This document shows, piece after piece, positions 39,103 to 60,325 of a DNA stretch of 64,000 nt. The translations under genes and the position numbers were made by a program. The stretch covers positions 79,429 to 143,428 of the forward strand of contig CABMDC010000001.1 of NCBI GenBank assembly GCA_902384795.1, read 5' to 3'. Position 1 is the stretch's first letter; every line of letters starts with the position of its first letter. The stretch is from Candidatus Gugararchaeum adminiculabundum (GTDB lineage Archaea; Micrarchaeota; Micrarchaeia; Burarchaeales; Gugararchaeaceae). The notes under the pieces were generated by a model. That model saw nothing but the letters and a program-made list of their open reading frames with translations, did not search any database and was not told the origin of the DNA.

Positions 39103-39121
39103 CATTATTAGGTTGGTTGAA

Positions 39122-40428: not shown

Positions 40429-41721
40429 ATGGAAGAAAAAATAGAAAACAAAAAAACAAACGCGCGCGCAAGGATTCCCGAGCTCGTGCTTCTTTCGCTA
40501 TTGGTGATCGCATCCTTCTACGTTCCGTTCGCGCTCGCGCTTCCGGCAATTCCCACCGCTTCTCTCCAAATAGTCCCCTCCGGAACAATAACCGCGCTGC
40601 CCGAGGACACAACCTCTGTTCCAAAAACCGATTTGGGAAGCGGGTTCGGCCAGGCGCTCAGCTGCGACGCTTCCTCCATTTTCAGCTTCAGCTGGCTTCC
40701 CATGGCGCTGGTGGCAATACTTGCGGTCATACTGATGCTCGCGCTGGCCTACATGATGTCCGTGATTTTCGCGCTCCAGCCCCTGGCGGTGTGGGCAAAG
40801 AACGAGGCAAGCCAAATCGCGGTCACAACCCTGCTAATCATACTGCTTCTCCCCTCAACGCAAGTTTTCTCCAATCTCGGTTGCGCCATACACAAGGAAA
40901 ACACCTTTGACCGCGCCATCGGCTATGTGAAATCAGTGAGGATGAAACTGCTGGTCGATTTCGGGGCCCTCACATCGCTCAATGTTTTCATAGGCCTGAT
41001 CTCCTCGGTGCAGATCAACCTCACCCCGCTGCGTATGGGCGTGTTCTTCAGCTTCGGCTCTGCGTTCAAGCCGATACTTGACTGGATCGGAATCGGCTCC
41101 CAGGCGATGCTTCTGGGAATAGGCGAAATGACCGTGCACGAGCTCGCGCTCTATTTCGTGCGCGACCAGATGTTCGCGCTCTTCCTGCCCCTGGGAATTT
41201 TCCTGCGCAGCACGCCTTTCACGCGCAGGACAGGCAGCGCGCTCATTGCCATTGCCATCGGGCTTTACTTCGTTCTCCCAATCACGCTCCTGGTGAACCA
41301 GGTCATCTACGACGACCACTATGGAAGATATGCGGATGATTTCGCGGCCTATGCCAAGGCCTATGGGCTCGGGGACGTCTGCGCTCCCACCCAGACCTCA
41401 TCCCTGGCCGCCCCCTGCCTTTCGCGCAGCATCGCATCCCCTATTTTGATTTACGTCCATAATTTCATGACGCACTTCGGGCTTCTCACAATCATGGGCC
41501 TAGCCTTCGGCGTGCTCGCCCAGGCGGCCACTGCCCCGCTCATAGTCGCCGGCATGGTCACGCTGGTGTTCTCGGTTGCCAATGATTTGATTTTCATGCT
41601 GGTGATATTCTGCATACTGCTGCCGATCATAAACATCACGCTCACGCTTTCATTCATAGCATCGCTTGCCAAGGCGCTGGACAGCGACATAAATCTGAGC
41701 GCGCTGACAAAATTGATTTGA
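40429..41721 (+). CDS. Polytopic membrane protein, paralog 4 of 6 (extra N-terminal signal/TM segment)
   Basis: YMMSVIFALQPLAVWAKNE. FLPLGIFLRSTPFTRRTGSALIAIAIGLYFVLP. C-terminal DINLSALTKLI. Confidence 0.8.
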   Translation: MEEKIENKKTNARARIPELVLLSLLVIASFYVPFALALPAIPTASLQIVPSGTITALPEDTTSVPKTDLGSGFGQALSCDASSIFSFSWLPMALVAILAVILMLALAYMMSVIFALQPLAVWAKNEASQIAVTTLLIILLLPSTQVFSNLGCAIHKENTFDRAIGYVKSVRMKLLVDFGALTSLNVFIGLISSVQINLTPLRMGVFFSFGSAFKPILDWIGIGSQAMLLGIGEMTVHELALYFVRDQMFALFLPLGIFLRSTPFTRRTGSALIAIAIGLYFVLPITLLVNQVIYDDHYGRYADDFAAYAKAYGLGDVCAPTQTSSLAAPCLSRSIASPILIYVHNFMTHFGLLTIMGLAFGVLAQAATAPLIVAGMVTLVFSVANDLIFMLVIFCILLPIINITLTLSFIASLAKALDSDINLSALTKLI

Positions 41722-41840
41722 AAAATAAAAATGGAAAGAATGGAAATGAAAAAATGGAAGAAAAAAAGAAAATAAAAAGAAAATGAAAAACAGAAAATAG
41801 AATTTAAATGAAAAAATGAAAATAAGAAGAGGAATAGATT
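41722..41840 (+). repeat. Purine-only spacer between paralogs 4 and 5
   Basis: 119 nt of A/G with repeated (a)atggaa / atgaaaa units. Contains the mini-ORF MERMEMKKWKKKRK. Confidence 0.6.
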
Positions 41841-43208
41841 ATGATTGAAATATTGGCTCTGCAAGGAATACAAAAATTCACGACCCTCCTAGACGCACTC
41901 CCGCTTCCAGGCCAGTTCCTTCCCACTAGCAATGCACCGGATCTCGCCTGCACGCTTGCGAAGCCGGTTGCAACCGCCTGGGATTCCGTGAGCCAGGGCA
42001 TCCCCTGCATGTGCCACTCCTCCTGGGTCAGCAATTCGTGGCAGGTAAACTGGTTCGCCTGGCAGGGCATAGGCCTCCTGGCGATCATGATCGGCGCGTT
42101 CCTAATTGCGGTCGTTTACATGCTAAGCGAAATCCTCGGGGGCATGAACCTCCTTGCCTGGCACAGGATGGAAGTAACCCCTCCGCCATCGGGCAATGCC
42201 GGAATGAAGGCCTGGGCAAAAAATGAGATGTTCCAGGTTTTCACCACTGCGATAATCTTCCTCAGCATAGTGGGGCTTGTGAATTTCGCCTGCGCAGTGA
42301 ACACCACTTCCATCTTCTTTTCAGGATACAAATATACCGCGCTGGATACGAACAATAACATAGTCCAGGTGCCCCCCTACCAGAACATGTTTGACGAGGC
42401 GATCCGCTACCTGGATTCGCTCTCCTTTTACTCGGGCTTTGCATTCCTCTATTCGTTTTTCAGCAATCTGGGAATCTCGTTCGTCCAGGGCTTCATCTGG
42501 ACAAGCAGGCCCGGAGGACTTGGCGTGATGGCCCAGCCCCTGGCAGGCCTTTCGCCGCTCATGAGTTCCTCGGGAATGGTGATGTCCACAACCATGATCG
42601 CCTTCCTGACCGCGGCAGTGCAAGTCCAGGTTCTCAGGTTTGTGCAGGCCACCATGCTCAGCGTTTTCCTTCCCATCGGTCTTCTCTGCCGGTGCATCGA
42701 GCCCCTGCGCGGGTTTGGCGGAATGCTCATCGGCCTTGCGCTGGTGATGTTCATCCTCTATCCTGCGCTGCTGGTGATGAACGAGGCGGTTGTCGCGCCA
42801 TCGCTTGCCTCCTACCAGTGGAGCGCGAATTTCTATTTCGAAAAAACAATCCCGGCCGAACCAGACCCAAACGACCCCACCAAGGAGATCCCGACCACCA
42901 TGTACGGAGTTGGCGGATTCGCCAACAAGTTTGCAGCCTCTGACCCTAACGACCCGAACAGCGGGGCAAGTTTCTTCTCAAGCCCTACGGCCTACTCCGC
43001 CAGCGCGCTTCCGAAAACAATGTTTGACAAACTGGTCTCCCCATTCAGCTACCTATACTCGGCAATAATCCGCCTTGTTGCGGTAATTTTCGTAGGAGTC
43101 TTCGCGCTCACGGCCCTGAATTTCGTGATACTCACCGCAGCCGTGCGCGAGCTTACAAAGCTTCTCGGAGAAGAAGCCGACATAACCAACCTGACAAGGA
43201 TGATATGA
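41841..43208 (+). CDS. Polytopic membrane protein, paralog 5 of 6 (extra Cys-containing N-terminal domain)
   Basis: YMLSEILGG...KAWAKNEM. FLPIGLLCRCIEPLRGFGGMLIGLALVMFILYP. C-terminal EADITNLTRMI. Confidence 0.8.
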   Translation: MIEILALQGIQKFTTLLDALPLPGQFLPTSNAPDLACTLAKPVATAWDSVSQGIPCMCHSSWVSNSWQVNWFAWQGIGLLAIMIGAFLIAVVYMLSEILGGMNLLAWHRMEVTPPPSGNAGMKAWAKNEMFQVFTTAIIFLSIVGLVNFACAVNTTSIFFSGYKYTALDTNNNIVQVPPYQNMFDEAIRYLDSLSFYSGFAFLYSFFSNLGISFVQGFIWTSRPGGLGVMAQPLAGLSPLMSSSGMVMSTTMIAFLTAAVQVQVLRFVQATMLSVFLPIGLLCRCIEPLRGFGGMLIGLALVMFILYPALLVMNEAVVAPSLASYQWSANFYFEKTIPAEPDPNDPTKEIPTTMYGVGGFANKFAASDPNDPNSGASFFSSPTAYSASALPKTMFDKLVSPFSYLYSAIIRLVAVIFVGVFALTALNFVILTAAVRELTKLLGEEADITNLTRMI

Positions 43209-44341
43209 TGCCCATGAATCTGATTCCATCTGCCATTGGCGGAATTCCCGCGCTGCTCCAGGGCGCCTCATTCATCGAGACCGGGCAGCCGGTGCAGGGC
43301 GGATTCCGCGACGTGTGGACAGGAAGCCTGGCCGGCGGCCAGAGCTGGGAATGGTACGCATTGGCGGCAATCATGCTCACATTTTTCGCAGCCCTGCTCA
43401 TGTACATGTTCTCCATCATCATGCAGTCGGACAGCATGAAGAAATGGGCGCAGAGGAATTTCATCGAAGTGCTCGCCTCGGTCCTCATAGTGGTTCTTCT
43501 CATGGGAATCGTTTCCGGAGTAATTGCCAGCGTCGGGGTACTTACCGAGACCATGGCGCACGACTACCATTTCGACCTGACCGTGATCGCCATGGGGAAA
43601 AATCCGCAAAGCCCGTTCGACCTGACCTACGCGTTCCTTTCAAAGCAGATAGGGTGCGAGAAGAAATACTTCATGTATTCCTACTGGGCGAACTATGCGG
43701 TCGAGTTCGTTGAGAAATCCACCATCGGCACCGTCTGGGGAGAGCCGATTTCCGGCTGGCCGCTCGCCCCGAGCACAAACCTGTTCCATTCCATCAACCA
43801 TTCCATCTCCTACCTGCTGATTGGGCAGTACCTCATGTGGCACCTGCTCTGGTTCTGCGAGCACACCATGTTCGTGTTCTTCCTCCCGCTCGGAATAGTC
43901 CTCAGGACCTTCCCGCTCACGCGCGGGGTCGGCGCATTTCTCATGGCGCTTGCCATCGGCATGTTCCTTATTCTTCCGCTCACTTTCTCCCTGCAGATCG
44001 TGCTCTATACTAGGGGGCTTCCGCAGACCGCGAGCAGCACGAGTTCTGTGACCGGCTGCGCGATCCAGCCGGTTTCCGCGGACATGAGCGCCCTGGTGCA
44101 GGAGCAGTGCAACAACGGGGAGGCAAGCACCGTGGGCGCGCAGGTTTACGAATACCTGAAAAACAGGGACAAGTCCATCGGCATGGGCGAGCGCCTGAAA
44201 GCCGAATTGACTATGCTCACATTCATCCCCTTCTGGTTCGCGCTCGCGGCGGTAATGACCCTGACCGCGGTGCGCGCCATGGCGCAGCTTTTCGGGACAG
44301 ACACGCAGGAGCTGGGCAGGGGAATGTTCAAATTGCTGTAG
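43205..44341 (+). CDS. Polytopic membrane protein, paralog 6 of 6
   Basis: YMFSIIMQSDSMKKWAQRNF. FLPLGIVLRTFPLTRGVGAFLMALAIGMFLILP. Overlaps paralog 5 by 4 nt (ATGA), indicating translational coupling. Confidence 0.8.
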   Translation: MMPMNLIPSAIGGIPALLQGASFIETGQPVQGGFRDVWTGSLAGGQSWEWYALAAIMLTFFAALLMYMFSIIMQSDSMKKWAQRNFIEVLASVLIVVLLMGIVSGVIASVGVLTETMAHDYHFDLTVIAMGKNPQSPFDLTYAFLSKQIGCEKKYFMYSYWANYAVEFVEKSTIGTVWGEPISGWPLAPSTNLFHSINHSISYLLIGQYLMWHLLWFCEHTMFVFFLPLGIVLRTFPLTRGVGAFLMALAIGMFLILPLTFSLQIVLYTRGLPQTASSTSSVTGCAIQPVSADMSALVQEQCNNGEASTVGAQVYEYLKNRDKSIGMGERLKAELTMLTFIPFWFALAAVMTLTAVRAMAQLFGTDTQELGRGMFKLL

Positions 44342-47029: not shown

Positions 47030-47929
47030 TTAAATAAGCGAACTAATCAGCCCCATCGCCTTTGCTATTTCGTTTACGTTCTCCCTTTCCTGCTCGTGTG
47101 CCATAAGCACTGCAACCCAAAGAATAGTCAGGGACGTTCCCACCGCCCCTTCTTCGCTCATTTCAGCCGGAGTCTTATCCGTTTTCCTGGCTTCTTGCTC
47201 GTAAACTTTTCTTCCCAGAGCCAGCGCGCTGTCCGCTATTTTTTTCGGGTCATCCATTTCAAGAATTTCATTTATTTTCCTGCCAATCCACCCGCTGCCT
47301 GCAGGCCCCTCGTCCTGCGGTTCGAGCAGCCGCATTTTGCTGAAAAGGAGACAGCTTGCTTCTTCAAATGTCTCCTTCACGAGTTTATTCTCCTCTTCAT
47401 CTCCCTTGCCTTCCTGGCTAGCTGGCGGGTATTTGGCAAAAAAATCGCATATGTGCCTGGCAAATTCTGCGCAAGACATCTTTATCGGGTCCCCGGCTAT
47501 GGTTCTTATTTCCGCAGGGCCTTTTACCACGCCCATAATCTTTTCTGCCATCAGTTCTACTTCCATCGCAATCCCGATCTCCCAATTCTCGCGCGCATAG
47601 CCCCAGATCCTGTCCACCACAGCGCCGTCCATGGCCGGGACGCAAAATCTTTCCCACAGCATAAGCCTGACATACTCGAGCAGGCTTTCCTCCTCCAGTG
47701 TCATCGTTATGCAAAGGGTTACAACGCAGAGCCCTTTCTCCTGTTTAGTCGCTTTCAATTGTACGTCATTCAGGAGTTTTGCCACCCTATCCTCTATGCT
47801 GTCAGCAAAAGCATTGAATTCTTTTCTTTCCACCGGACCTTTGCCGGCATTCCTCTGGGCAAATTCTCTGGCAAACTGCTCAATCTGCTTGACTTGAAGA
47901 AGGGCCATTCCTACGCATTTTTCAGGCAC
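47030..47929 (-). CDS. Hypothetical cytoplasmic protein (299 aa) upstream of rtcB
   Basis: Protein-like composition. The overlapping + strand ORF 47096-48019 is F/H/C/R-rich antisense noise. Confidence 0.55.
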   Translation of the reverse strand: MPEKCVGMALLQVKQIEQFAREFAQRNAGKGPVERKEFNAFADSIEDRVAKLLNDVQLKATKQEKGLCVVTLCITMTLEEESLLEYVRLMLWERFCVPAMDGAVVDRIWGYARENWEIGIAMEVELMAEKIMGVVKGPAEIRTIAGDPIKMSCAEFARHICDFFAKYPPASQEGKGDEEENKLVKETFEEASCLLFSKMRLLEPQDEGPAGSGWIGRKINEILEMDDPKKIADSALALGRKVYEQEARKTDKTPAEMSEEGAVGTSLTILWVAVLMAHEQERENVNEIAKAMGLISSLI

Positions 47930-48130
47930 GCCGATCTTCCTCAGCGCTTCAGCATAGGACCTAGCGCCCTCTCCCCCCGGACCTCAAACTTCGGTATCAT
48001 GCTTAAAATTCTGCCGTGATAAGAATAAAAAACAAGTGGTAATAAGCGAAAGGAAATGCTTACGTAGAATTTCACTTCCACAGCGCCGCCAGCGCAATAC
48101 TAATATAGTATAGCGCCACAATTTTCCCCT

Positions 48131-51100
48131 ATGAAGCGTGCGGGAGTCAGGTTTGAGCTAATATTAGCATCATTGCTCATTCTCATTTCAGCGGTTTTCG
48201 TCTACGCGCAAAGCGCTCCCTCGCCCGGCTCGCTCACTATCACTGACTTTGACGGAAATGCGGTCGCTTTCCAGGCGCAGTTTTTCCTGCCAGGCACCCA
48301 GGTGCAGAAATCCCCGAACGACGGCGGAGCCTATGATGTGCAGATCACGGTGAACAATTTCCCTGCAACCATTCACCTCAACCGCACAATCTATTCCGGC
48401 CAGACCCTAATCAAAGTTTCCCAGCCCGCTCCAACAAACCCGCCAGCCCGCTACACCCTTTCCAGCTCGCTCCGCGTAGTCGTCCAATCCGATTCCTCGT
48501 TTGAAACAATCGAAGTGCGCAAGCCGGCTTCTTCCCCTGTGATTTTCGAATGCAATAATTTCAATGAAAACAAGAACGAATGCCCCTCCTGGTCCCGCGC
48601 CAAGGCGCTGAACCCAAAAATCGGGGACGAATACCGCTATTCAACGCGCACTTCGCAAATAGTCCTTGCAGAAGGGACGCTTGACCCGAATGCAAAAACG
48701 CTCACAGGAAAAGTGAAGGTGCGCGACCGGGCGGGCACTGAAATAATCCTGGGCCAGGCGGAGCTTTTCGAGCCGGGCACCACGCTCGCCGCTGAATCCG
48801 ATTCCCAGGTCGCGGACGCGAACGTGAACATTTACGGAAAAAAAGTAAGGAGCATAAGATTCCACGGCCTTGACCTGAACCGGACAACCATCGACCTGAG
48901 CGTTGATAATGCGCCCAATGCAATAATAAACGGAAAAACATACCTCAAGTCGTTTTCCATTGACACGACCGGATTGAATTTCACCTCGGCCACTGTCACC
49001 TATGACAGCACAGGCGGCCCGCTTTACAAATGCAAGGATTGGAATTTCGCCACTTCCAAATGCCTGGGCGAATGGGTTACGGTGCCCACGGCCTCGTCTG
49101 ATATCCTTGGTTACATGACCTTTGAAATATTCCCCGGCGACCCGCTCTACACCCAGGGCTATACCTACAACTTCACGTTGAACTATTCCTCGGTGACTTC
49201 CTCCACCTGGACCAATGCGGCCTATGTCAATGCCAGCGACACGGGCTATGCGACCTGCACCGCAAAGACAAAGCGAATGATACTCGCGCTAACTCCCCTT
49301 ACCGTAGGGGGAACCGGCGATCGAATTACCAGCGTGGTAATGGCAACCCGGTGGAAAGCAAGCTCCACCGATGCCACGGACGGTATAACATTGACTCCCT
49401 ATTTCAGCGGAGTTGCCGGCACCGCATCAAGCTACTTCGGCTGCTCGACCACCGAAGCATACAAGCAATTCGACATCACCTCCCAAAAATCACCCTGGAC
49501 CTGGGCCGATGTAAACTCACTCTCCTATGCAGTTGACTCGGTTGCCTCGGGAAGCTATGGCTGCGGCACCATAAGCGACAACTACATTTACATAAATGTC
49601 TCATTTGTCCCGGACGCCACAGGGCCGACAGTCCAGCTCACCTCTCCTGCGAACATCACCATATACTCCGGAGGGTCTGTCAATTTCACCTACAATGTGA
49701 CCGATGCCTCGACCATTGCCAACTGCACCCTATGGGTCGACAATGTGGCGGTGATCAACGACACCACCTCCACCTTCACCATGAACACCACATTGAATTT
49801 CACCTACACTCCCACGGGCACATCAACACACACCTGGAATATCCAGTGCACCGACACCTCGTTCAACAAGAATGTTGCAAATGCCACGAGGAATTACACC
49901 CTTATTCCAGACACCACTGCGCCGGTTGTCACGCTCCTAGGCCCCGCCACTTCCGCTTCCTATAACGCCTCCAATGTCACGTTCTATTATAGCGTGACAG
50001 ACCTTTCGGGCATTCAAACATGCTCCCTGTTTTTGCAGGGAAACGCGGTTTTGAACAGGTCGATGTTAATCACCAACCAGTCCTCCACTAACTTCACGCA
50101 ATACAACCTGCCGGTCGGCACCTACAATTGGAGCGTCAAGTGCACTGACAATTCGACATTCCAGACAAACAGCGCGACCGCAGCAAACAATTCCATCACC
50201 ATCACTACTTCCACTGCATCGCTAACCGTGTCCGACAATGAAATGGACAACGAGTCAATGGGCATTCCTCCTGGCTATTCGGCAGTAAACGGAATCGGTT
50301 CCAGCACTGACGCCTTTTTCTTCGCAAACTACACCGATGCCGGAGGCAATGAAATCCCCCCGAAGTGGCACGATTCAGTGTTTAGCATGGCTTACACCAC
50401 CCTGGGGAACATAACCATGATGCGCAACCCGAACGAACTGCTCTGGGTCACGGCACCAGGTGCTGCTACCATAACATCTATTAAGGCAGACCTGCGTCAC
50501 ACCGGAGTGAAATCCGATGTAATCGTAGTGGTGATGAGCCTAGGTCTATACGCCTATGACCAGTTCGGGAATCTTCTGTGGACCTTTCCAATTGCAACTA
50601 CAAACACCAACTCCCCCCTGGCAATAGGCGACTTTGACAAGGACGGATATGAGGACGATACCATTTTCAGTGACGGCATGTATGTCTATATATTCAATGA
50701 GAGCGGCGACGTGCTCGCAAACTCCTCATTGTTTTACGGCCATCATTCCATAGCATCAGTGGCTGTAGCAGACTTTGACGGGGACGGCTACAGGGCAGAG
50801 GCAGCAGTGGCGGCCTATTCCAACGACACTAGCGGTGCAAATCCGGACGTGGTCGCTTTCATGAACGGTTCGCTCGGAAATTACCAGAACTTCACTTTTG
50901 CCTCGCTTGCCCGCGGCCTTGGGACTCCGCGCCACAATTACTTGGCACTAGGCGACTTTGACAGCGACGGATATGAGGATGATTTGGCCGTTGCGACCTA
51001 TTCCACCAGCACCTATGCCATCAAGAATGACTCAACGCTCATCTGGAACTATACTACGCCAGCAAACCAGAATTCCACGCGCGTGGCTGCTATAGACTAC

Positions 51101-53884
51101 TCCCGCTCCGGGATTAAAAACGGGGTCGTGGCAGTTCAGTATTTCAATACCACCATAGGCTACATCGCTGTTCTTAATTCCAGCGGCCAGGCTTCTTGCA
51201 TTATAAATACAACCACCTGGGATTCATCTCCAAACGATATCGTAGCAACGGACTTTGACTCCAGCGGTTATCAGGATGATTTCTACGCTTCTATCTACGC
51301 CAAAAACGTGTCTGCCTACAACAGCTCCTGCGGTCCAATTTGGAATTATCCCGCAGGCAGCACGGTAGCATACTACTACCTGGCCATTGGCAATCTGGAT
51401 GAGAACGGTTATGTCCAGGATGACGTCCTGTCTTCTGGTACCTTGGCATCGAGTATTGTCGCATTGACTGCGCTTAAAAATGACGGCACCTATCTCTGGA
51501 ACTTCACGCAAGCATCCATTATCGGGGATGTTGCAGTGGGCAACTTTGAAAACTCCTACCGCGGCTGTACCATTTACTTCGCTGACCGAAAAACTCCAGA
51601 GCAGATGAGCTACAACTCTACTGGCAAATATTACTATTACGAGCGCCGCTTCTATTCCAACGGCACCAAGACCTACAACATCGACTGCCAGGGAAGGGAT
51701 TATGATACGAAAAATGCGAGCGGCACAACCTATGTCGGCCCGCCAGCTGCCCTGACAATTGCGAACCTGAGCATTTACACCGGCACCGAGTTCAGCACAC
51801 TCGGCTCAGGCACCCAGGTCTGCAGCATCACCTCATCTTTCGGAGATAACATTTCCACAGGCTCCTGCGCGAATAATTTAATGCAGGGCACACGCTACCG
51901 CGCGGAAATTCTCGTATGCAATGACGGCGGGTACAACGCAAGCAATGCGCGTTTCAACACGCTGAAGTTCAGCAACCTTTCCACCAGCATGATAAGCACG
52001 CTGGGAACCGGCTGTGGCTATGGCGATTATGGCGGGGCAATCACAGCAATTTCCAGCGGCTGCTCCTATTCCAGCGGAACGCTGACCATCACTTCCAATT
52101 ACGGGGTCAGCCTTCCAACCGGCACCGCGCGCTCCACAACCAATTGCAAAACATTCGCATTCAATTTCACGGCAGGCACGCCAAGCGCAGCATATATTCA
52201 CAACACATCGCTCAGCATTACCGGAGCCGATTTCGGAGTAAACCCAGACACCAACACAATAACAGTGAACACCAGCTCGCCTCCTGCGCTCCACGTTGCG
52301 CAGCTGCGCATTTTCCAGAGCTCTGATTTCAGCACGCTCGGCTCGGGCACTACCAAATGCAACGTGAAATCGCTTTGCAGCAATGTGGCCGGAATGGACG
52401 ATTTCCTGGGAACCACAATCGACATTGGTTACTGGGCTTCATCTGCTGCTGCGGATCTGCCCATAACCCAGAACAACAGAATAGTGATGAACGGCACATC
52501 CACTTCCGCCGACCCGCAGATGTCAAGTTTATTTTCCACCACGTTCCTCCCCTACAATGTAACGGCTGACATGGCAATTGACGGGACCACCTTTGACATC
52601 ACTGCCCCAAGCCCATCCCCGGTTGCCCTCGGGTTCCTGTCAATTGACGACCAGTCTTCAGCCACGCATTTCTACGCGCAGCTTGCCATCTCTCCAGCGG
52701 ATAACGCCGGCACCAAATCAGCGGTAGTCATCGCTCTCTTTTCAAACGAGAGCGGGGAATCCCCTGAAGGGCCAGTTATTCTCGGCACTGTCGGGCTGAA
52801 CGAAACCCTAACCGGCTATATACTATATAACTATACGAACAAGAGCGTGATAGTCGGATACAACGGGACCTCCTCCGGCTCCACCCAGTTTACTGGAATG
52901 GATTTCACTCCCGCAAGCACCGTCAATCTGCTGGGAGTGCTGAATGCGCAGGGCGGGTCCATAAATTTCACGGCCGACAATTTCATTGCATTTACAAATT
53001 CCACCTGGGGCACGTGCGGAAACATTACCACCGCGAATTGCGCGGGGCAGCTCTCATCGAATTCCAACTACCGCACGGAAATAAGATTATGCAATGATGT
53101 TGATGCAAACGGCAACACCAACGCCACTTTCACGACCCTGAAGCACAGCAACCTCACGGACAATTTAATATACGGGATCGGAACCGGCTGCGGCTATGGG
53201 GACACATCCATTTCCGCGCTCGGAGGCGGCTGCGCCTATTCGACAGGGACAGTGACCCTCACCGACAACAATGCGCTCGGCATCCCGCCAGCGGATACGC
53301 GCTCGGACTCCAATTGCGAATGGTTCGCGTACAATTTCACAACCGGCGCGCCAACAAATGATTACATCCACAATTCGTCCATCAGCACTACGGGCGTGAA
53401 TCTCGGCACCAATCCGGACACCAACACGATACAGATAAATCTCACCGGGCTCGTGGCAATAAGCTTCACGGTTTCCTATCCATCCTCAGGCTGCTCCAAT
53501 GGCAAGGGCTGCGCAACAGGCGGATGCAGCGCGTGCACAAGATGCTGGTTCGAAACCACTGACCTCACCGGCCTCGCGACCGAATCAAACGTGAATTGCG
53601 AAGGCCAGAGTTCAGGCACCGCTTTCTTCAGGTTCACGAACACCGGCAGCTCAACTTTGAAATGGCAGGTGAAGCTTGAAAGCGCGCTCCCGGCAACTTT
53701 CGCCTACAAGATGGCGAATGACACCCCGGCCCCTGCCTATGCGCAAACAATCGGCACAAGTTTCGCCACCATAAAAAGCGGCATAGCCGCTTCGGCCTAT
53801 GCCGATGCCTGGGCCTACGGGGATTTCAACACTGCTCCGGGAGGCTCGGCCTCAAGCACACTGACTGTAAATGGAACTACCTGA
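48131..53884 (+). CDS. Giant secreted surface protein (1917 aa) with an FG-GAP/integrin-alpha-like repeat region and an internal roughly 165-aa duplication. Heavily sequon-rich (N-x-S/T).
   Basis: N-terminal signal peptide. Five D-F-D-x-D-G-Y-x-D-D calcium-binding-like repeats between about 50630 and 51425. Duplicated Cys-containing modules at about 51765-52280 and 52980-53450. Dozens of N-x-S/T sites. No C-terminal TM. TATA taatatag at 48101-48108, so probably leaderless. Confidence 0.85.
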   Translation: MKRAGVRFELILASLLILISAVFVYAQSAPSPGSLTITDFDGNAVAFQAQFFLPGTQVQKSPNDGGAYDVQITVNNFPATIHLNRTIYSGQTLIKVSQPAPTNPPARYTLSSSLRVVVQSDSSFETIEVRKPASSPVIFECNNFNENKNECPSWSRAKALNPKIGDEYRYSTRTSQIVLAEGTLDPNAKTLTGKVKVRDRAGTEIILGQAELFEPGTTLAAESDSQVADANVNIYGKKVRSIRFHGLDLNRTTIDLSVDNAPNAIINGKTYLKSFSIDTTGLNFTSATVTYDSTGGPLYKCKDWNFATSKCLGEWVTVPTASSDILGYMTFEIFPGDPLYTQGYTYNFTLNYSSVTSSTWTNAAYVNASDTGYATCTAKTKRMILALTPLTVGGTGDRITSVVMATRWKASSTDATDGITLTPYFSGVAGTASSYFGCSTTEAYKQFDITSQKSPWTWADVNSLSYAVDSVASGSYGCGTISDNYIYINVSFVPDATGPTVQLTSPANITIYSGGSVNFTYNVTDASTIANCTLWVDNVAVINDTTSTFTMNTTLNFTYTPTGTSTHTWNIQCTDTSFNKNVANATRNYTLIPDTTAPVVTLLGPATSASYNASNVTFYYSVTDLSGIQTCSLFLQGNAVLNRSMLITNQSSTNFTQYNLPVGTYNWSVKCTDNSTFQTNSATAANNSITITTSTASLTVSDNEMDNESMGIPPGYSAVNGIGSSTDAFFFANYTDAGGNEIPPKWHDSVFSMAYTTLGNITMMRNPNELLWVTAPGAATITSIKADLRHTGVKSDVIVVVMSLGLYAYDQFGNLLWTFPIATTNTNSPLAIGDFDKDGYEDDTIFSDGMYVYIFNESGDVLANSSLFYGHHSIASVAVADFDGDGYRAEAAVAAYSNDTSGANPDVVAFMNGSLGNYQNFTFASLARGLGTPRHNYLALGDFDSDGYEDDLAVATYSTSTYAIKNDSTLIWNYTTPANQNSTRVAAIDYSRSGIKNGVVAVQYFNTTIGYIAVLNSSGQASCIINTTTWDSSPNDIVATDFDSSGYQDDFYASIYAKNVSAYNSSCGPIWNYPAGSTVAYYYLAIGNLDENGYVQDDVLSSGTLASSIVALTALKNDGTYLWNFTQASIIGDVAVGNFENSYRGCTIYFADRKTPEQMSYNSTGKYYYYERRFYSNGTKTYNIDCQGRDYDTKNASGTTYVGPPAALTIANLSIYTGTEFSTLGSGTQVCSITSSFGDNISTGSCANNLMQGTRYRAEILVCNDGGYNASNARFNTLKFSNLSTSMISTLGTGCGYGDYGGAITAISSGCSYSSGTLTITSNYGVSLPTGTARSTTNCKTFAFNFTAGTPSAAYIHNTSLSITGADFGVNPDTNTITVNTSSPPALHVAQLRIFQSSDFSTLGSGTTKCNVKSLCSNVAGMDDFLGTTIDIGYWASSAAADLPITQNNRIVMNGTSTSADPQMSSLFSTTFLPYNVTADMAIDGTTFDITAPSPSPVALGFLSIDDQSSATHFYAQLAISPADNAGTKSAVVIALFSNESGESPEGPVILGTVGLNETLTGYILYNYTNKSVIVGYNGTSSGSTQFTGMDFTPASTVNLLGVLNAQGGSINFTADNFIAFTNSTWGTCGNITTANCAGQLSSNSNYRTEIRLCNDVDANGNTNATFTTLKHSNLTDNLIYGIGTGCGYGDTSISALGGGCAYSTGTVTLTDNNALGIPPADTRSDSNCEWFAYNFTTGAPTNDYIHNSSISTTGVNLGTNPDTNTIQINLTGLVAISFTVSYPSSGCSNGKGCATGGCSACTRCWFETTDLTGLATESNVNCEGQSSGTAFFRFTNTGSSTLKWQVKLESALPATFAYKMANDTPAPAYAQTIGTSFATIKSGIAASAYADAWAYGDFNTAPGGSASSTLTVNGTT

Positions 53885-53981: not shown

Positions 53982-54545
53982 GTGATTTGTTTGAATAAAA
54001 TGCCGTTTTTAGCACTATTCATGGTGACCATGTTCGTGGGGTTCGCTTTTGCCGACACCATCTCCACAACAGTTCACTTTAACGTGCAGACCCAAACTTC
54101 GTTCACTGTGACGCTTCCGGGCGGGAGTGCCGTTGCCTCTGGCACAACTTCAGACATTGAATTCAACTCAACATCAGGCACCCAGGTCAAGGTGAATGCA
54201 AGCGTTGTGGGCGCACCTTCAAACGTGCAGACCAGCTCCATCCCGATATTCGTTTACTCGAACACCGGAAACGTGGACATCAATGTCAATCTTACACTTG
54301 ATTCCACCTACACTGGAATCACGGTAAAGGCGGCAAATGCCAATGCTGACTGGGAATCAAGCTGTTCCTCCACTGCAATGCCCGATTCGGGCAAGTGCGT
54401 GGCTGTTTCAACTGCCTCACGGAGAGTTGCAGGCACTTTGGCAGCAGGCGGGACCCAGAATGTTTGGATGTGGGCTGACTTCTCATCCGTTGCAGGAGGG
54501 ACTTCGGTTTCGAAAACACTGACGCATACCAGTGCTGCAAGTTAA
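53982..54545 (+). CDS. Secreted Thr/Ser-rich beta-rich protein (187 aa)
   Basis: Signal peptide MPFLALFMVTMFVGFAFA, then alternating beta-strand-like segments with N-x-S/T sequons. Start is ambiguous among GTG 53982, TTG 53991 and ATG 54000. Confidence 0.6.
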   Translation: MICLNKMPFLALFMVTMFVGFAFADTISTTVHFNVQTQTSFTVTLPGGSAVASGTTSDIEFNSTSGTQVKVNASVVGAPSNVQTSSIPIFVYSNTGNVDINVNLTLDSTYTGITVKAANANADWESSCSSTAMPDSGKCVAVSTASRRVAGTLAAGGTQNVWMWADFSSVAGGTSVSKTLTHTSAAS

Positions 54546-54563
54546 AATTAATGGGGCTGATTT

Positions 54564-55493
54564 ATGATGAAAAATACAAAAATTTTGTTTGGATTGCTTG
54601 TGGCGCTGATGCTTTTGTTCGGCTGCACAGGCGGAGCGGGCGAGCAGCCTGCGGCTGGGACTGGCAATAATACGGTAGCTCCGGTGAAAAATGACACCGT
54701 GGCCCCAGAACCCACGGCATTGGAAAAAAGGATTGCCGAAGACCTGGCTGTTGCAGAGAAACTGAAAACAAGGCCTGACTATGGATTTGGAATCACGGGC
54801 GCATCAGTCCTGTTCCAGAAGCTTCCGGCATTTCCAACGGACTTTTACAAAATGAGGGTCCAGGTGAGATACAACCGGATAACCGACCTCACTAATTTGG
54901 ATGCGAAATACTACAAGCAGCCCGAGTTCTACCCCGGATTTGACGACGGCTTCCAGGCTGCGGGACAGGGCGCAAAGCTCTATGCAGCACCTCCTGAAGG
55001 AAGGTGGGGAGCATTCGGCTATGGCACCTACCCTGCCGATGCACAGGTGACAACCGCAGCGGGACAGGAATTCAAGCTGACGACTTTCTTCCACACTGGC
55101 TGGCTTGTCGAATCCTACCAGGGAACAAGGCTGACCGCATCCTACCCTGAAACGGCCTCACTCCCAAACCAGGAAATGACCGGCGCAAACAGCATGGTGC
55201 AGGACCCGGTGAAAACCGCCGGATACTTCGATGTAACGGTGACTCCGAACGTATTCCTGCTTGATCCCGCATTCCCGCAATTCGGCGAGAACTGGGCGCA
55301 GAAAGTGATTGTTGACGTTAAGGTAAAGGAAGGCACGCCCAAGGGAGTTTATGTGATCGGAATCAACCCGAGCGCGCCGCCTGCAGAACAGAATGATGCC
55401 TGGGCAACTCAATACACCACTGCCTACACAACTGCGGGAGCAGCAACATCGCTTGACAGGCCGTTCTACCAGATTGCGGTAGACGTGAAGTAA
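54564..55493 (+). CDS. Lipoprotein (309 aa), predicted extracellular
   Basis: Signal peptide with lipobox LLFGC. Confidence 0.65.
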   Translation: MMKNTKILFGLLVALMLLFGCTGGAGEQPAAGTGNNTVAPVKNDTVAPEPTALEKRIAEDLAVAEKLKTRPDYGFGITGASVLFQKLPAFPTDFYKMRVQVRYNRITDLTNLDAKYYKQPEFYPGFDDGFQAAGQGAKLYAAPPEGRWGAFGYGTYPADAQVTTAAGQEFKLTTFFHTGWLVESYQGTRLTASYPETASLPNQEMTGANSMVQDPVKTAGYFDVTVTPNVFLLDPAFPQFGENWAQKVIVDVKVKEGTPKGVYVIGINPSAPPAEQNDAWATQYTTAYTTAGAATSLDRPFYQIAVDVK

Positions 55494-55496
55494 GCG

Positions 55497-57299
55497 TTGA
55501 TTAGCGTGCAAACGCGCAAACTTCTTTTCTTTTCTTTTTTCTTTCTATTTTTCCTAGCCCAATTTTCATCAACCGAATCAGTTTCAACTCAGACCTATTT
55601 CCGCTCCGTTGACCTCCACCCGCGCATTTCAATCATCGCTTTCACCGTAATCCCTTCCAGCATTAACAAGGGCGGCAGCGGAGACCTGGCAGTGACCTTC
55701 AGGAACACGGGAGGCTCGGTTGCCGCCGCAACCGCAACAGCGCAGATTTTTGACGGCTCGGGCAATCTTCTGCAGACACTGGAATTCTCGGAAATAGAAG
55801 TTCCTCCCGGCCCATCCATAGTGGCAATGAAATCATTTTCTGTAGGCAGTTCGCCTGTGGGCATTTACCGCGTGTTTGTGAACGCAACCTATGGCGAGGA
55901 AAACATTACCAACACCCCGGACACTTCATTTACAGTGGTCACCCCTGTTTCAGAAATAGTGCCCCCTGAATCCACCACCGGCCTTCCAACTCCCATCGTC
56001 CCGCCCGGCTCGCTTCCGCCTGCAATCACTCCCATCAAGGGTGACATCAGCATGGTGAAAAGCATAGTGCGCAGCGACATTGTGCTGGGCCAGGGAACGG
56101 TTTCCAGCATCTCCATGAAAAACGTGGGCGATTCGGCTGCGAGGATCTCATTTGAAATTTCAGGTATAAGCAGCAGCTGGCTTGTGGAAAAGCCCAAGGA
56201 CACAATTGTCCTTCCGCAGGAAACGCGCGTGGTCAACCTCCCGTTTTCCATTCCGGCGAACGCTCCAACCGGGGATTATCTGGTGAAAATAAAAGTCACC
56301 TCCAAGCCCACAACAACCTCCGTTTCAGGAAGCAATGGAAACGGAGTCAAGGGAAATGGCGGCCCGTCAATTCTTTTGCTTGACAGCGCAGGCGCAGCGC
56401 AGTCCGAAAGCACCGACTACATCCTGCTGCGCGTGAAGAACGCGCCGGCCCCTACTGACAAGCCCTATGTGCTCCGCACCCTGAGCACCGATTCGGTCAC
56501 CGGCAAAACCACGGTCACGCTCATCATCCGAAACCCGTCAGCTTCGGTTTACAAAAACCTGCTCGTTTCAGAATTAATCCCGCGCGAACTCGCCCTGGAC
56601 TCATCAAAAATTTCCTTCAGCGACAAGCAGGGCGTTGTTTCAGACACCGGCAAGGGAGTCGAGGTAAACTGGCTCATTGACCTGAATGCCAACGATGAAT
56701 TGAGAATCACCTACTCCATTTCCAGCGTGCTTTCGGAATATTCGGTCTACTATGACTGGCAGCTGAACACCCTTGCCACGGAACAGAAAACCGCGCTCGA
56801 GGATTTGCTTTCCGTTGTGCAGATTGAGAGCGAGCAAATTTCCGCAGGGGGCGTTGGAAAAATCCATGCAGTGGTCCTTTACACTGGCGACACTCCTGTG
56901 CCCATAACCGCGTTCCTGGAAGTTCCCAGCGGGTTCGGCTCCAAGCCCCAGTCCCTTGTGCGCACGCTCCCCGCGCGCAGCTACAGCGACCTGGATTTTG
57001 AAATCCAGACTCCTGAGAATTCCGGCGGCTCGTCTTCGGTGAACCTGGTAATCCTGAGCGGAAGCACGCAATTGCGCGCAACCACCCCGGTGATAATCTC
57101 CTCCCCGCACCCGGCCACTGGCGGAATCGACATTTCAAAAATCGGAGTGATCATCGCGGCAGTCATCGCTGCCATAGTCCTGTTTTTCGGCCTGAAATTC
57201 GTGCGCTCAAGCCTCGACCGCTCGCGCTACAGCAATGATAGGGTTAAAAATCTCATGCAGTTTAAACGCATGATAGACATTGATACCGAGAAAAAATAG
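55497..57299 (+). CDS. Cell-surface protein with CARDB-like beta-sandwich repeats, a Pro/Thr linker and a C-terminal TM anchor (600 aa)
   Basis: N-terminal signal. Ig-like repeats. PPESTTGLPTPIVPPGSLPP linker. C-terminal TM segment IGVIIAAVIAAIVLFFGLKFV followed by a basic tail. Confidence 0.7.
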   Translation: MISVQTRKLLFFSFFFLFFLAQFSSTESVSTQTYFRSVDLHPRISIIAFTVIPSSINKGGSGDLAVTFRNTGGSVAAATATAQIFDGSGNLLQTLEFSEIEVPPGPSIVAMKSFSVGSSPVGIYRVFVNATYGEENITNTPDTSFTVVTPVSEIVPPESTTGLPTPIVPPGSLPPAITPIKGDISMVKSIVRSDIVLGQGTVSSISMKNVGDSAARISFEISGISSSWLVEKPKDTIVLPQETRVVNLPFSIPANAPTGDYLVKIKVTSKPTTTSVSGSNGNGVKGNGGPSILLLDSAGAAQSESTDYILLRVKNAPAPTDKPYVLRTLSTDSVTGKTTVTLIIRNPSASVYKNLLVSELIPRELALDSSKISFSDKQGVVSDTGKGVEVNWLIDLNANDELRITYSISSVLSEYSVYYDWQLNTLATEQKTALEDLLSVVQIESEQISAGGVGKIHAVVLYTGDTPVPITAFLEVPSGFGSKPQSLVRTLPARSYSDLDFEIQTPENSGGSSSVNLVILSGSTQLRATTPVIISSPHPATGGIDISKIGVIIAAVIAAIVLFFGLKFVRSSLDRSRYSNDRVKNLMQFKRMIDIDTEKK

Positions 57300-57323
57300 C
57301 GAATACTGCGCGGGCGTGTTAAG

Positions 57324-58106
57324 ATGCGTGAAAAGAGGGTTGTCGGAATAGTTTCAGGCAAGGGCGGGGTAGGCAAGAGCACCATTTCCGTGAATCTCAG
57401 CGCCCTGATGAGCGAGCACAATTTGAGCATCCTTCTCATAGACTCGGACATCGGCAACCCCTGCGTGGGCGTGCACCTGGGAATCTGGCAGCACACCGCA
57501 GGCCTGCAGGACGCGCTCGCAGGAAAGGCGAAGCCCGAGCAGCTGATAATCTCACACCCGGCCACGGGCATCCGCGTTCTTCCCGCTTCATTGCAATACA
57601 AGCATGCGAGCATGGATAACCTCAAGGACATAGTTTCCAAAATAGAGGGATTTGAAATCATAGTCATAGATTCGCCGCCCGGGATCACCGAGGAGGTGGA
57701 AGCCATAATCGACGCCTGCACAGACCTGGTGGTTGTCACCACCGCGGACCTGCCCAGCGTTTCCTCGGCCACCAAGATTGTGGAGCTCGCGCGCGGAAAG
57801 AACAAGCATGTAATCGGCATCGCGCTCAACCGCGTGATAAGCAAGAAATACGAGCTTCATCCGCGCGAAATAGAGGCCATGACCGACTGCCGCCTGCTGA
57901 CCATAATCCCCGAGGACCGCGCGGTCCCTGAAAGCATAGGCGCCGGCATCCCCCTGGTCCTCTACCGGAGAAGCAGCGACGCATCCCTGAAAATGGTCGA
58001 GCTGGCGGGCCAGGTTTCAGCCTATTGCGGCATCCGCGAGGGCTATTCCCAGATGGGCATAATCCAGCGCCTGCTCCTCGCCATCCGGAGAATCCTACCG
58101 ATTTAA
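57324..58106 (+). CDS. MinD/ParA-family ATPase
   Basis: Deviant Walker A GKGGVGKST. DSPPG Walker B. 260 aa, typical archaeal MinD-like. Confidence 0.85.
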   Translation: MREKRVVGIVSGKGGVGKSTISVNLSALMSEHNLSILLIDSDIGNPCVGVHLGIWQHTAGLQDALAGKAKPEQLIISHPATGIRVLPASLQYKHASMDNLKDIVSKIEGFEIIVIDSPPGITEEVEAIIDACTDLVVVTTADLPSVSSATKIVELARGKNKHVIGIALNRVISKKYELHPREIEAMTDCRLLTIIPEDRAVPESIGAGIPLVLYRRSSDASLKMVELAGQVSAYCGIREGYSQMGIIQRLLLAIRRILPI

Positions 58107-58627: not shown

Positions 58628-60325
58628 GTGTATCCAATGAAATTTTTTGCAGCCCGAACTCCGAATACTACCAATCAAAATGCCGCAACCGCGCAGCAAA
58701 GGAACAAATTCCTCACCGTAGCATTGCTTAGCGCATCCATTGTTGCAACATCCGCCACCTCCGCCTTTGCAGCAAACGTATACAAGAAGTTCAAGCAGGC
58801 AAAGAACGGGGATGAAATAGTTTTGACTTACAAGGGCGCAAACAACAAAACCCGAACCCGCAGGGGCATCATTGAAAACATGTATGAAAAGAAAGGCAAG
58901 GACGGGAAGCCTTATTTTGGATGCTATCTCACAGTGGCAGAAGGGAAAATCGAAGTGACCGGTTCCAAGATGCAAAACCTCAAGATTATCCCCAATGTAA
59001 TCCCTTCCAAGCCAATATTTGTCAAGCTGCCAGGGGCAAAATCCAAGGACTGCCCCTGCCCGAAATCAAAGGCAAAGCCGAAGCAGGCGCACAAGAAAGT
59101 GCAGCCCAAGGCAAAACCCAAGGAACAACCAAAGCAACTGGCAAAAGCGAAACCAAAAGAGCCGGAAAAAAAGGACAAGCCCAAGGACAAGGAACCCAAG
59201 CTAGGAAAAACATTCGGGCCTGAGCTGCCGAAAGAGCCGGCGCCAGAAGCAAAGCAGAAGCAAAAACCTGCAAAGGAAAAATCAAAAGTTAAACCAGTCG
59301 AAAAACCCCCTGAAGAAGAAAAGGGATTGCCACTAAAACTCTCCCCCGCCCCTGAGGAAGAAAAACAATCAAAGGACAAGCCCAAGGGCAAGGAAAAGAA
59401 AGTGGCGCAAAAACCAACAAAGGAAAAGCCTGCGCACAAAAAAGGCCCGGTTGCCGCAATTGACATACGGGCCGATTCTTCCGAAAGCAACGGCGTTGGC
59501 GGAAGAGTGAACTTCAGCACCAAGAACTTTATCGGCGGACTCTCCGCCAGGGTGGCGCGAAGTTTTGACGTAATGTTCTCGCACCGCGTGCGCAAGACCA
59601 CGGGCACAGGAATAGACGGCGTGAATCCACGTCCGGTTGAAACAGAGGCGGCCGATACCACTATCGGGGGCGTTAGATGGTTCAATGAAAGATTCGCCTG
59701 GCTCAAAGTCGGCCTAAGAGACACCGTGACCACTGTCAGCGGAAAAGGGCGCTCAGAAACAGCGCAATCCACCTATTTCGAAGCAGGCGCGGAAACGCCC
59801 AAGCACAAAGTTAGGGTCAACAACAAGGGTGAAAGTGAAATAGAAATCAGCGGGCAAAGGAAGAGCTACACCGCCGTAGCCGGCGCATCCACCGAGGAAG
59901 ACAAATTCGAGCCGGTAGACCTGGGCAAAAAAGTCAATCCTGACAACGCATCCAAACGCAAGGCGAAATCAAGGTATTTTGGAGTTTCCAAGCGAGTGAC
60001 CAAAAAAACAGAAATCGGCATGAGGGGCGAGCAAGGGGTAGACAAAGTATCCAACTGGCCCAAGACAAAGGAAATAAGGACCAAGACCCGCTCCCTGGTC
60101 GCCACGGTGCGCAGGACCTTTGGAAGAACCACTGTTACGGCCGAAGTCGGCAGGGTCCACGGAGAGGACAGCATTGGCAATGGCCCGGGAGAAAAATTTG
60201 GCTACCAGAAAGCCGGAGTTGGCATAAGCAGGGAAATCGGAAACAAGGGCGCTTCCCTTGAGTTCCAGTACAACAAAAGCGGCCAGGACGAATATATCTA
60301 CGGTGGCGTAAAGTTCGTCAAATAA
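58628..60325 (+). CDS. Secreted protein with a long Lys/Pro-rich (KPK/EPK) spacer and a C-terminal beta-strand-rich domain of about 260 aa (565 aa)
   Basis: Hydrophobic segment LTVALLSASIVATSATSAFA. About 120 aa of KPKxxPK repeats. A C-terminal domain with alternating hydrophobic pattern ending YIYGGVKFVK. Confidence 0.65.
   Translation: MYPMKFFAARTPNTTNQNAATAQQRNKFLTVALLSASIVATSATSAFAANVYKKFKQAKNGDEIVLTYKGANNKTRTRRGIIENMYEKKGKDGKPYFGCYLTVAEGKIEVTGSKMQNLKIIPNVIPSKPIFVKLPGAKSKDCPCPKSKAKPKQAHKKVQPKAKPKEQPKQLAKAKPKEPEKKDKPKDKEPKLGKTFGPELPKEPAPEAKQKQKPAKEKSKVKPVEKPPEEEKGLPLKLSPAPEEEKQSKDKPKGKEKKVAQKPTKEKPAHKKGPVAAIDIRADSSESNGVGGRVNFSTKNFIGGLSARVARSFDVMFSHRVRKTTGTGIDGVNPRPVETEAADTTIGGVRWFNERFAWLKVGLRDTVTTVSGKGRSETAQSTYFEAGAETPKHKVRVNNKGESEIEISGQRKSYTAVAGASTEEDKFEPVDLGKKVNPDNASKRKAKSRYFGVSKRVTKKTEIGMRGEQGVDKVSNWPKTKEIRTKTRSLVATVRRTFGRTTVTAEVGRVHGEDSIGNGPGEKFGYQKAGVGISREIGNKGASLEFQYNKSGQDEYIYGGVKFVK

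Follow-up and report, generated by a model that had tools for sequence, protein, structure and literature searches.

WxL gene clusters of Firmicutes encode a small WxL protein, a large WxL protein, and WxLIP, the last of which is composed of DUF916, DUF3324, and a transmembrane (TM) helix (PMC10599100). Among archaea, filaments held together by donor-strand complementation are documented (PMC9715654; 10.1101/2024.12.30.630787; PMC12337348). For Micrarchaeota, small filaments of unknown identity occur at the sites of contact between Micrarchaeum and its host (PMC8975820). How DPANN archaea recognize and hold other cells is largely unknown, and the locus described here is a concrete candidate that can be tested. 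It lies in a window of 64,000 nucleotides (nt), which is the whole stretch of DNA that was analyzed (contig CABMDC010000001.1 of Candidatus Gugararchaeum adminiculabundum, positions 79,429–143,428). The largest gene in the window encodes a protein of 1917 amino acids (aa), hereafter referred to as the giant. Based on its sequence features, the giant is a candidate attachment device, in which an integrin-style beta-propeller is combined with a conserved C-terminal domain (CTD) that would link the protein to a conserved surface gene cluster.

Across all of its residues, the giant shows 100% identity to an NCBI entry of Candidatus G. adminiculabundum that is titled "Uncharacterised protein". This organism is represented by a Micrarchaeota (DPANN) metagenome-assembled genome (MAG) from the Little Forest Legacy Site, and a host-independent lifestyle has been proposed for it (PMC8561730). 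The words integrin, FG-GAP, adhesion, and S-layer do not occur in the paper that describes the organism (PMC8561730). Moreover, no earlier description of the giant, the CTD, or the cluster was found in the literature on DPANN or Micrarchaeota combined with FG-GAP, adhesins, or integrins (open-access papers and preprints). When the full-length giant was compared with a set of 5.8 billion sequences, only the giant itself and one match restricted to Big_7 were returned; the word index was probably swamped by T/S/N-rich words. A sequence search of PDB with the whole protein gave no match, and neither the giant nor its three downstream neighbors have a match in NCBIfam.

In a Kyte-Doolittle scan, the sole hydrophobic stretch of the giant is at residues 4–28. 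This stretch reads as a Sec signal peptide with cleavage between VYA and QS, although the assignment was made by eye and an uncleaved signal anchor is possible. The same scan revealed no C-terminal membrane anchor, TM helix, or cytoplasmic tail. The giant is acidic (147 D+E vs. 90 K+R), contains 35 Cys residues, and has 68 N-x-S/T sequons, compared with 35.5 ± 5.0 expected from shuffles. An earlier annotation of this DNA from its letters alone (the original prediction) had described a secreted giant with dozens of sequons and no TM anchor, and these results agree with that description.

The CTD, which the original prediction overlooked, connects the giant to a large set of other proteins. An exhaustive HMMER search with residues 1150–1917 identified 74 representative clusters, of which 37 have E ≤ 1e-10 and 73 are other proteins with lengths of 116–1613 aa. 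The great majority of the 73 match over the final ~140 aa, and in each case the match lies at the very C-terminal end of the protein, such that the CTD terminates more than 60 otherwise unrelated proteins. The parts that precede the CTD, hereafter the passengers, are diverse and include MG2, Laminin_G_3, Big_7, beta-helix, NosD, CBM96, fn3, and other Pfam families, with FG-GAP in only one of the 73. The named members come from Micrarchaeota/Micrarchaeia MAGs, one entry labeled Diapherotrites, and one labeled only "archaeon". A search with a broad CTD alignment (A1) returned three proteins only. The alignment signature of the CTD is SFTvxYPSSGCxxGxGCxTGGCxxCxRC...GQT..aF.F.NTG...W.wGDF, and AlphaFold predicts a nine-strand beta-sandwich with pLDDT values of 85–98 (10-residue block means). 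The CTD has no match in Pfam, in NCBIfam, or among PDB sequences (the last searched by profile). As judged from these searches, the CTD is a lineage-specific domain that was previously undescribed. The large-type CTDs have a cluster of five to six Cys residues near the start (SSGC-x5-C-x4-C-x2-C-x2-C ... C), whereas in the CTDs of small, CTD-only proteins this cluster is missing and a later loop holds a different Cys pair. Because these Cys patterns differ, the large and small CTDs are distinct subtypes.

Immediately 3' of the giant gene is a conserved operon of four genes (positions 53982–58106), which was likewise overlooked previously. The first gene encodes a 187-aa protein that consists of a signal peptide and a stand-alone CTD; the CTD was detected by BLASTP (E 3e-5) and by hmmsearch across nearly the whole model (E 1.3e-19). 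The spacer between the giant gene and this gene, as read by eye, contains oligo-T runs, a TATA-like box, and a Shine-Dalgarno-like motif ahead of the ATG at position 54000, suggesting that the small CTD gene is probably separately promoted. The second gene encodes a lipoprotein-like protein of 309 aa (hereafter the lipoprotein), which belongs to a conserved family whose genes are nearly always located directly 3' of CTD genes. Except for one weak CARDB match among 38 members, this family has no match in Pfam, and a profile search of PDB also found none. Comparisons with hhalign detected no relationship of the lipoprotein to the CTD or to the product of the third gene, which has immunoglobulin (Ig)-like domains and a C-terminal TM helix (hereafter the Ig/TM protein). 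The fourth gene encodes a ParA/MinD-type ATPase. The lipoprotein, Ig/TM, and ParA/MinD genes are closely spaced, and family scans found no peptidase or sortase-like domain in the cluster.

The gene organization of this cluster recurs in other loci. Five genome loci, all from Micrarchaeota MAGs, were retrieved via a single peptide pattern from a tighter CTD alignment. The order of large CTD, small CTD, lipoprotein, Ig/TM, and ParA genes is complete in three of these five. Considered separately and within the limits set by contig ends, a lipoprotein gene is found 3' of the CTD gene in all five, a small CTD gene in four, an Ig/TM gene in four, and a ParA gene in three. A metagenome scan with the lipoprotein provided 79 further loci (L006–L084), which are without taxonomy. 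A CTD gene lies just 5' of the lipoprotein gene in 52 of the 58 cases that have enough upstream sequence. In addition, 86 of 89 distinct CTD genes precede a lipoprotein gene or another CTD gene, a proportion that is biased upward by the retrieval of these loci via the lipoprotein. The shortest large CTD protein in the fetched loci has 348 aa and the longest has 2142 aa or more; the giant is the second largest. The gene order is variable; for example, the large CTD gene is divergently oriented in L006–L008, and a large CTD gene can be followed by its own lipoprotein paralogue. A single genome can also have multiple large CTD proteins and multiple clusters, as seen in L025 (two clusters on one contig) and in P0008 and P0016 (same MAG, different contigs).

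A further connection among the products of the cluster comes from their N-termini. In the small CTD proteins, the residues that immediately follow the signal peptide are conserved, and the mature N-terminus reads A-D-Y-A-Q-T-x-V-Y-F-N-V-P. A similar motif is found at the same place in many Ig/TM orthologues (e.g., AAQYAQETSYFSV, SDFAYTRIFFNV, and ADYAQGDTFFTY; the version in the window is STESVSTQTYFRSV). In hhalign, the small CTD and Ig/TM proteins match with a probability of 85% (E 6.6e-6) over a stretch that takes in the signal peptide. With an ungapped position-specific scoring matrix (PSSM), the Ig/TM proteins have a median score of 3.7, compared with about -7 for controls, and 12% of them score above 12 bits, with no clean separation. 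Because this enrichment is modest, the occurrence of the motif in both proteins is only suggestive of a common element. The PSSM did not find the motif in the large CTD proteins, the lipoprotein, or ParA.

For the central part of the giant, the original prediction proposed a beta-propeller of the integrin-alpha/FG-GAP type. PF01839 (FG-GAP) matches two stretches of the giant at 27.4 bits (cut-off 22.1), and FG-GAP_3 is under its threshold (22.9 vs. 26.9 bits). By sequence, this region qualifies as FG-GAP. It contains eight blade-like repeats that start at residues 784, 832, 879, 940, 986, 1039, 1086, and 1136 (46–61 aa apart), three of which are degenerate (784, 986, and 1136). Five of the eight have DxDxDG-type loops; these are canonical (DxDxDGxxD) at residues 834 and 942 and partly degenerate at residues 881, 1041, and 1088. 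All five motifs quoted earlier exist (residues 832, 879, 940, 1038/1039, and 1086; nt 50624–51424), and the regular spacing claimed for them extends to the eight units. Composition shuffles give expectations of 0.03 for the strict DxDxDG form and 0.07 for a relaxed form, compared with three and five in the giant, respectively. AlphaFold2 modeling of residues 700–1200, which rested on a six-sequence alignment, produced repeated four-strand units with a mean pLDDT of 51 and 10-residue block means mostly of 55–85 over residues ~780–1055. The alignment is shallow because the propeller region alone, when used as a query, retrieved only five weak FG-GAP/VCBS relatives (25–36% identity). With the propeller model as the query, Foldseek gave 816 PDB matches at E ≤ 1e-3; those listed at the top are beta-propellers, and the FG-GAP biofilm protein Bap1 is at rank 23. 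Pfam, the four-strand repeats of the model, and Foldseek are thus all consistent with the proposed propeller. The seven blades originally envisaged should be read as seven or eight, because the sequence holds eight repeat units.

Two of the loop motifs were also reported to be nearly identical in nucleotide sequence, which was ascribed to gene conversion or recent duplication. The near-identity exists (4 mismatches in 36 nt) between positions 50624–50659 and 50948–50983, whereas the positions given for it originally are out of register and differ at 26 of 33 nt. The same codon is used at nine of the ten shared residues, which has a probability of about 0.012 given the codon usage of the gene, uncorrected for the ten motif pairs. 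The similarity ends at the motif edges, and the flanks have none. The 36-nt near-identity is thus weak evidence for gene conversion, and we rejected gene conversion between blades 2 and 4.

Between the propeller and the CTD, the giant contains two copies of a Cys-rich beta module, the second of which is split. Residues 1240–1380 and 1631–1770 are 51% identical (E 8e-43), and the module duplication noted previously is therefore real. However, the interval given for the second copy (~52980–53450) omits a piece at residues 1384–1414, located 216 aa upstream of the rest. The claim that the duplication is recent does not hold either, given the split second copy and the overall divergence of the two copies (52% aa and 61% nt identity, with the same codon at 39 of 72 conserved residues). 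As judged from this divergence, the duplication is old. The module also precedes the CTD in several homologues. Because homologues from other genomes carry it at similar divergence (e.g., P0008, 40%), the module appears to be a domain family rather than the product of a recent event. The model of copy 1 is all-beta, with pLDDT mostly of 54–79. Upstream of the propeller, the two Big_7 domains are 36% identical to each other. The N-terminal region includes the paired Cys motifs C141/C151 and C301/C311, and its internal similarity is insignificant as a repeat over the N-terminal 470 aa (z = 2.6). The positions of all features are provided in Table 1.

Table 1. Features of the giant gene and of the four genes downstream, with positions in the window.
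Feature	Position	Strand	Basis
Giant-protein gene, 1917 aa, ATG start	48131..53884	+	Open reading frame (ORF); largest in the window
Putative signal peptide, aa 1–27, cleavage between MKRAGVRFELILASLLILISAVFVYA and QS	48131..48211	+	Kyte-Doolittle scan; sequence pattern
N-terminal region, aa 28–498, without assignable domain	48212..49624	+	Pfam, composition, self-comparison
Two tandem Big_7 Ig-like domains, aa 499–599 and 602–698	49625..50224	+	Pfam
FG-GAP beta-propeller region, aa ~780–1160	50468..51610	+	Pfam, motifs, AlphaFold model, Foldseek
Cys-rich beta module copy 1, aa 1205–1380	51743..52270	+	Self-comparison; AlphaFold
Cys-rich module copy 2, N-terminal piece, aa 1384–1414	52280..52372	+	52% identical to aa 1205–1235
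216-aa insertion splitting module copy 2, aa 1415–1630	52373..53020	+	No family match; mostly low model confidence
Cys-rich module copy 2, C-terminal piece, aa 1631–1770	53021..53440	+	Self-comparison
Conserved CTD, aa 1775–1917	53453..53881	+	HMMER, alignment, AlphaFold
Small secreted CTD-only protein, 187 aa, probable true start ATG 54000	53982..54545	+	BLASTP, hmmsearch, alignment
Lipoprotein-like protein, 309 aa, lipobox LFGC followed by low-complexity linker	54564..55493	+	Sequence, family synteny
Ig/TM protein, 600 aa: signal peptide, NPCBM_assoc/CARDB-type Ig-like domains, C-terminal TM helix, basic cytoplasmic tail	55497..57299	+	Pfam, sequence
ParA/MinD-type P-loop ATPase, 260 aa; syntenic in closer loci	57324..58106	+	Pfam

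Taken together, the domain content, the CTD family, the synteny, and the N-terminal motif suggest that the giant may be a variable binding protein that is retained on the cell via its CTD. With a probability of about 0.5, we consider the giant to be a Sec-exported, multidomain cell-surface binding protein of the adhesin type, probably heavily N-glycosylated, that is displayed via the CTD by the products of the cluster. The variable passenger, including the N-terminal region, the two Ig domains, the propeller with its Ca2+ loops, and the two Cys-rich modules, would be the ligand-binding part. The constant CTD of ~140 aa would be the module that holds the giant on the cell through the products of the four downstream genes. 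Adhesion, which was one half of the role proposed by the original prediction, is plausible for this protein; the other half, a role in the S-layer, is not supported by any S-layer domain in Pfam or NCBIfam.

A more specific mechanism for such display may be a strand-linked chain. The Ig-rich protein, anchored through its C-terminal TM helix, would serve as the base, CTD-only small subunits would form a short stalk or fiber, and the giant would be located at the distal end as the tip. At each link, the proximal partner would contribute its conserved N-terminal strand, which would insert into the CTD of the distal partner, similar to the links in donor-strand pili that have a tip adhesin or to those predicted for WxL/WxLIP complexes. 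The lipoprotein may act as a chaperone or assembly factor, and the ParA/MinD ATPase may position the complex via the cytoplasmic tail of the Ig/TM anchor. This chain of base, shaft, and tip is the most economical mechanism, and we propose it only tentatively. It is doubtful, though conceivable, that the cluster represents a new class of archaeal surface appendage, so far limited to Micrarchaeota-type DPANN, with a strand-linked stalk or fiber, a membrane base, MinD-like positioning, and interchangeable, fast-evolving adhesin tips. The small filaments at Micrarchaeota-host contact sites could be such an appendage.

Several observations weigh against this reading of the giant as a displayed adhesin and against such a chain. 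The CTD is modeled as a complete and confident fold by itself, and an incomplete, strand-accepting fold is not evident in the model. The Ig/TM copy of the N-terminal motif in the window is imperfect (PSSM score -4.6). The hhalign match between the small CTD and Ig/TM proteins is partly over the signal peptide. As for synteny, the counts from L006–L084 are biased, since the lipoprotein was the bait. Furthermore, only 10 of the 27 evaluable loci have an Ig/TM gene right after the lipoprotein gene, and only seven of the 27 have a ParA gene within 5 kb. These two neighbors are found mostly in closer relatives, and the detection of divergent members of the Ig/TM family is probably incomplete; near-universal linkage is limited to the CTD-lipoprotein pair. 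The propeller model is weak, given its low mean pLDDT, and its blade number is seven or eight. Finally, the source organism was proposed to be host-independent (PMC8561730), and thus the target bound by the giant need not be a host cell.

The main alternative is docking without a polymer, which we regard as rather unlikely but worth serious consideration. In this scenario, the CTD would be bound non-covalently and 1:1 by the membrane-tethered lipoprotein encoded downstream, in the style of cohesin-dockerin or WxL, and the CTD-only protein would not be a shaft subunit but would act as a competitor, cap, or regulator. The most conserved gene pair is indeed that of CTD and lipoprotein, being present in 5/5 CTD-fetched loci and for 52/58 lipoprotein genes. 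Where a locus has two CTD genes, two lipoprotein paralogues are often present as well (e.g., L043, L048, L058, and L073–L083), and the long flexible linker after the lipobox would also suit such a role. However, the window, L001, L002, L004, and L005 all hold two or three CTD genes but one lipoprotein gene, and docking leaves the motif common to the small CTD and Ig/TM proteins unexplained. A domain-only protein that is conserved and separately promoted is more simply explained as a structural subunit.

Based on the points counted against each, roles as a sorting tag, an S-layer component, or a soluble protein are less likely than CTD display or docking. There is a slim chance that the CTD is a sorting signal, which would be recognized and removed by dedicated machinery, like the CTD of bacterial type IX secretion cargo, after which the passenger would be attached covalently to lipid or glycan. 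Such a signal would fit a beta-sandwich that forms the very C-terminal end of many secreted proteins that are otherwise unrelated, as well as the possibility that one genome encodes two or more of these proteins (P0008 and P0016, which have the same MAG locus-tag prefix, and the two clusters of L025). Yet for a pure tag it would be odd that proteins composed of a signal peptide and CTD only are conserved beside the large ones in most loci. In addition, neither a peptidase nor a sortase-like domain was detected in the cluster, and the CTD genes are not scattered but closely linked to the cluster. It is also improbable that the giant is a soluble secreted enzyme, toxin, or scavenging protein with only incidental linkage to the downstream genes. 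The lack of a membrane anchor, together with ~470 N-terminal aa and a 216-aa insert that have no assigned function, leaves room for such a role, but no catalytic family was detected in Pfam or NCBIfam, and the CTD-lipoprotein synteny recurs over dozens of divergent loci. The giant is very unlikely to be an S-layer protein or component, even though it is large, acidic, rich in sequons, and secreted without a membrane anchor, and the anchoring of the Micrarchaeota S-layer is an open question (10.1101/2021.04.28.441871; PMC8975820). The S-layer protein of Micrarchaeota and its 52 homologues are marked by TIGR01564, TIGR01567, and the Pfam S-layer N-terminal domain (10.1101/2021.04.28.441871), none of which was detected in the giant (Pfam at E ≤ 1, NCBIfam at E ≤ 0.1). 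Moreover, the 35 Cys residues differ from the S-layer proteins described in that study (10.1101/2021.04.28.441871), and a passenger that is hypervariable among relatives, with almost no full-length homologues, is unlike a lattice-forming protein. The S-layer reading was rejected for the absence of an S-layer domain in Pfam and NCBIfam.

The remaining part of the window has the appearance of an ordinary archaeal chromosome. It encodes ribosomal proteins L3 and S2, SecY, RtcB, a TruB-family pseudouridine synthase, a class I aminoacyl-tRNA synthetase with a leucyl-type editing domain, a threonyl-tRNA synthetase (ThrRS) with an archaeal editing domain, and three tRNAs. Just 5' of the giant gene, two long ORFs overlap on opposite strands. 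The product of the minus-strand ORF (47030–47929) resembles a normal soluble protein and has no Pfam match, and the product of the plus-strand ORF (47096–48019) looks spurious. A few kb 5' of the giant gene, six adjacent genes on the plus strand (36808–44341; 295–455 aa) form a tandem array of membrane proteins with hydrophobic N-terminal regions and no Pfam family. These genes are mutual paralogues, mostly with 22–28% identity and E down to 1e-20. The ORF before this array (35462–36781) has no Pfam match and no similarity to the array members. Directly 3' of the ParA gene, a plus-strand ORF (58628–60325; 565 aa) has a signal-peptide-like start, a long Lys/Pro/Glu-rich low-complexity stretch, and no Pfam family. 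An IS200-like Y1 transposase gene (60541–61017, plus strand; Pfam E 4e-27) separates the surface cluster region from the ThrRS gene.

At 30–32 kb of the window, the GC content falls to 0.40. Two DNA methyltransferase genes (D12-class N6-adenine and N6_N4_Mtase) are found on the minus strand at 30829–32500, adjoined by a 691-aa ORF without family (28774–30849). Together, these genes (28774–32500) resemble an acquired restriction-modification island. Another lipoprotein-like ORF without a Pfam family is located at 26660–27955 (minus strand; 431 aa), and its lipobox (LLLAGC) precedes a linker rich in Gly/Thr/Asn. This ORF gave no match to the other family-less ORFs that were compared, a set that did not include the 309-aa lipoprotein. 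Finally, the annotated GTG start of a 321-aa ORF (20848–21813, plus strand) is probably wrong, because it falls inside a tRNA-Ser gene (20841–20926).

If the giant is displayed via its CTD, the cluster would have a hypervariable binding protein as its first gene, with the others resembling display machinery. The CTD provides a simple sequence handle for listing the surface adhesins of Micrarchaeota-type genomes, and the variable passengers (lectin-like, MG2, propeller, and beta-helix) could be set against host range. The presence of such a cluster in an organism proposed to be host-independent would either question that proposal or point to a role in biofilms or in attachment to particles. Even if display via the CTD proves wrong, the giant is a well-delimited archaeal surface glycoprotein with FG-GAP repeats, which is an ordinary category.

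Unlike proteins of the PGF-CTERM/archaeosortase type, the giant has no C-terminal hydrophobic segment. Unlike the CTD of type IX secretion systems, the CTD described here is not limited to cargo, and domain-only proteins are conserved. The likeness to integrin alpha and other FG-GAP (VCBS) proteins consists of the FG-GAP match above the Pfam threshold, the DxDxDGxxD loops at intervals of ~46–61 aa, and the presence of Bap1, a biofilm protein of Vibrio cholerae, among the structural matches. However, the giant lacks both a TM segment and a cytoplasmic tail, and Pfam detected no domain specific to integrins. We rejected the identification of the giant as an integrin on the basis of the missing C-terminal TM helix and tail and of the missing integrin-specific family match. 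Moreover, the propeller is just one of several domains in the passenger and is not conserved in the CTD family.

The architecture of WxL clusters offers another parallel. Both types of cluster include a small secreted protein that, once mature, consists only of the common domain, a large protein with the common domain at its C-terminus and variable binding domains ahead of it, and an Ig-like-domain partner that ends in a C-terminal TM helix. This parallel is architectural only. No WxL match was found by Pfam in the 73 CTD proteins (E ≤ 1e-3) or in 38 small CTD proteins (E ≤ 1). Among 19 Ig/TM proteins, WxLIP_HBD is seen in two, and only below threshold (e.g., 17.7 vs. 28.9 bits), and the dominant match is NPCBM_assoc. 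The identification of the giant as a WxL protein was rejected, as there is no WxL or WxLIP match at threshold. The Micrarchaeota cluster also has an extra lipoprotein and a ParA/MinD ATPase. The peptidoglycan binding of WxL proteins cannot apply here, because the host of the cluster is an archaeon and the cultivated relative shows no cell-wall polymer synthesis (10.1101/2021.04.28.441871). For WxL, AlphaFold2 predicts the insertion of a strand into the common domain (PMC10599100); for the Micrarchaeota cluster, we infer a strand link.

Such a link can be compared with donor-strand pili (bacterial chaperone-usher pili such as FimH/FimA, as well as archaeal threads, cannulae, and bundling pili). 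The Micrarchaeota cluster differs from these in having no recognizable usher or PapD-type chaperone and no sequence match to known families, and no subunit of threads, cannulae, or bundling pili is among the structural neighbors listed. Furthermore, the CTD model is a complete and confident fold, and polymerization of the small CTD protein is a proposal from the genes. The likeness consists of a proposed adhesin that has a subunit-like C-terminal domain and no donor strand, and of small subunits that have a conserved N-terminal strand right after the signal peptide.

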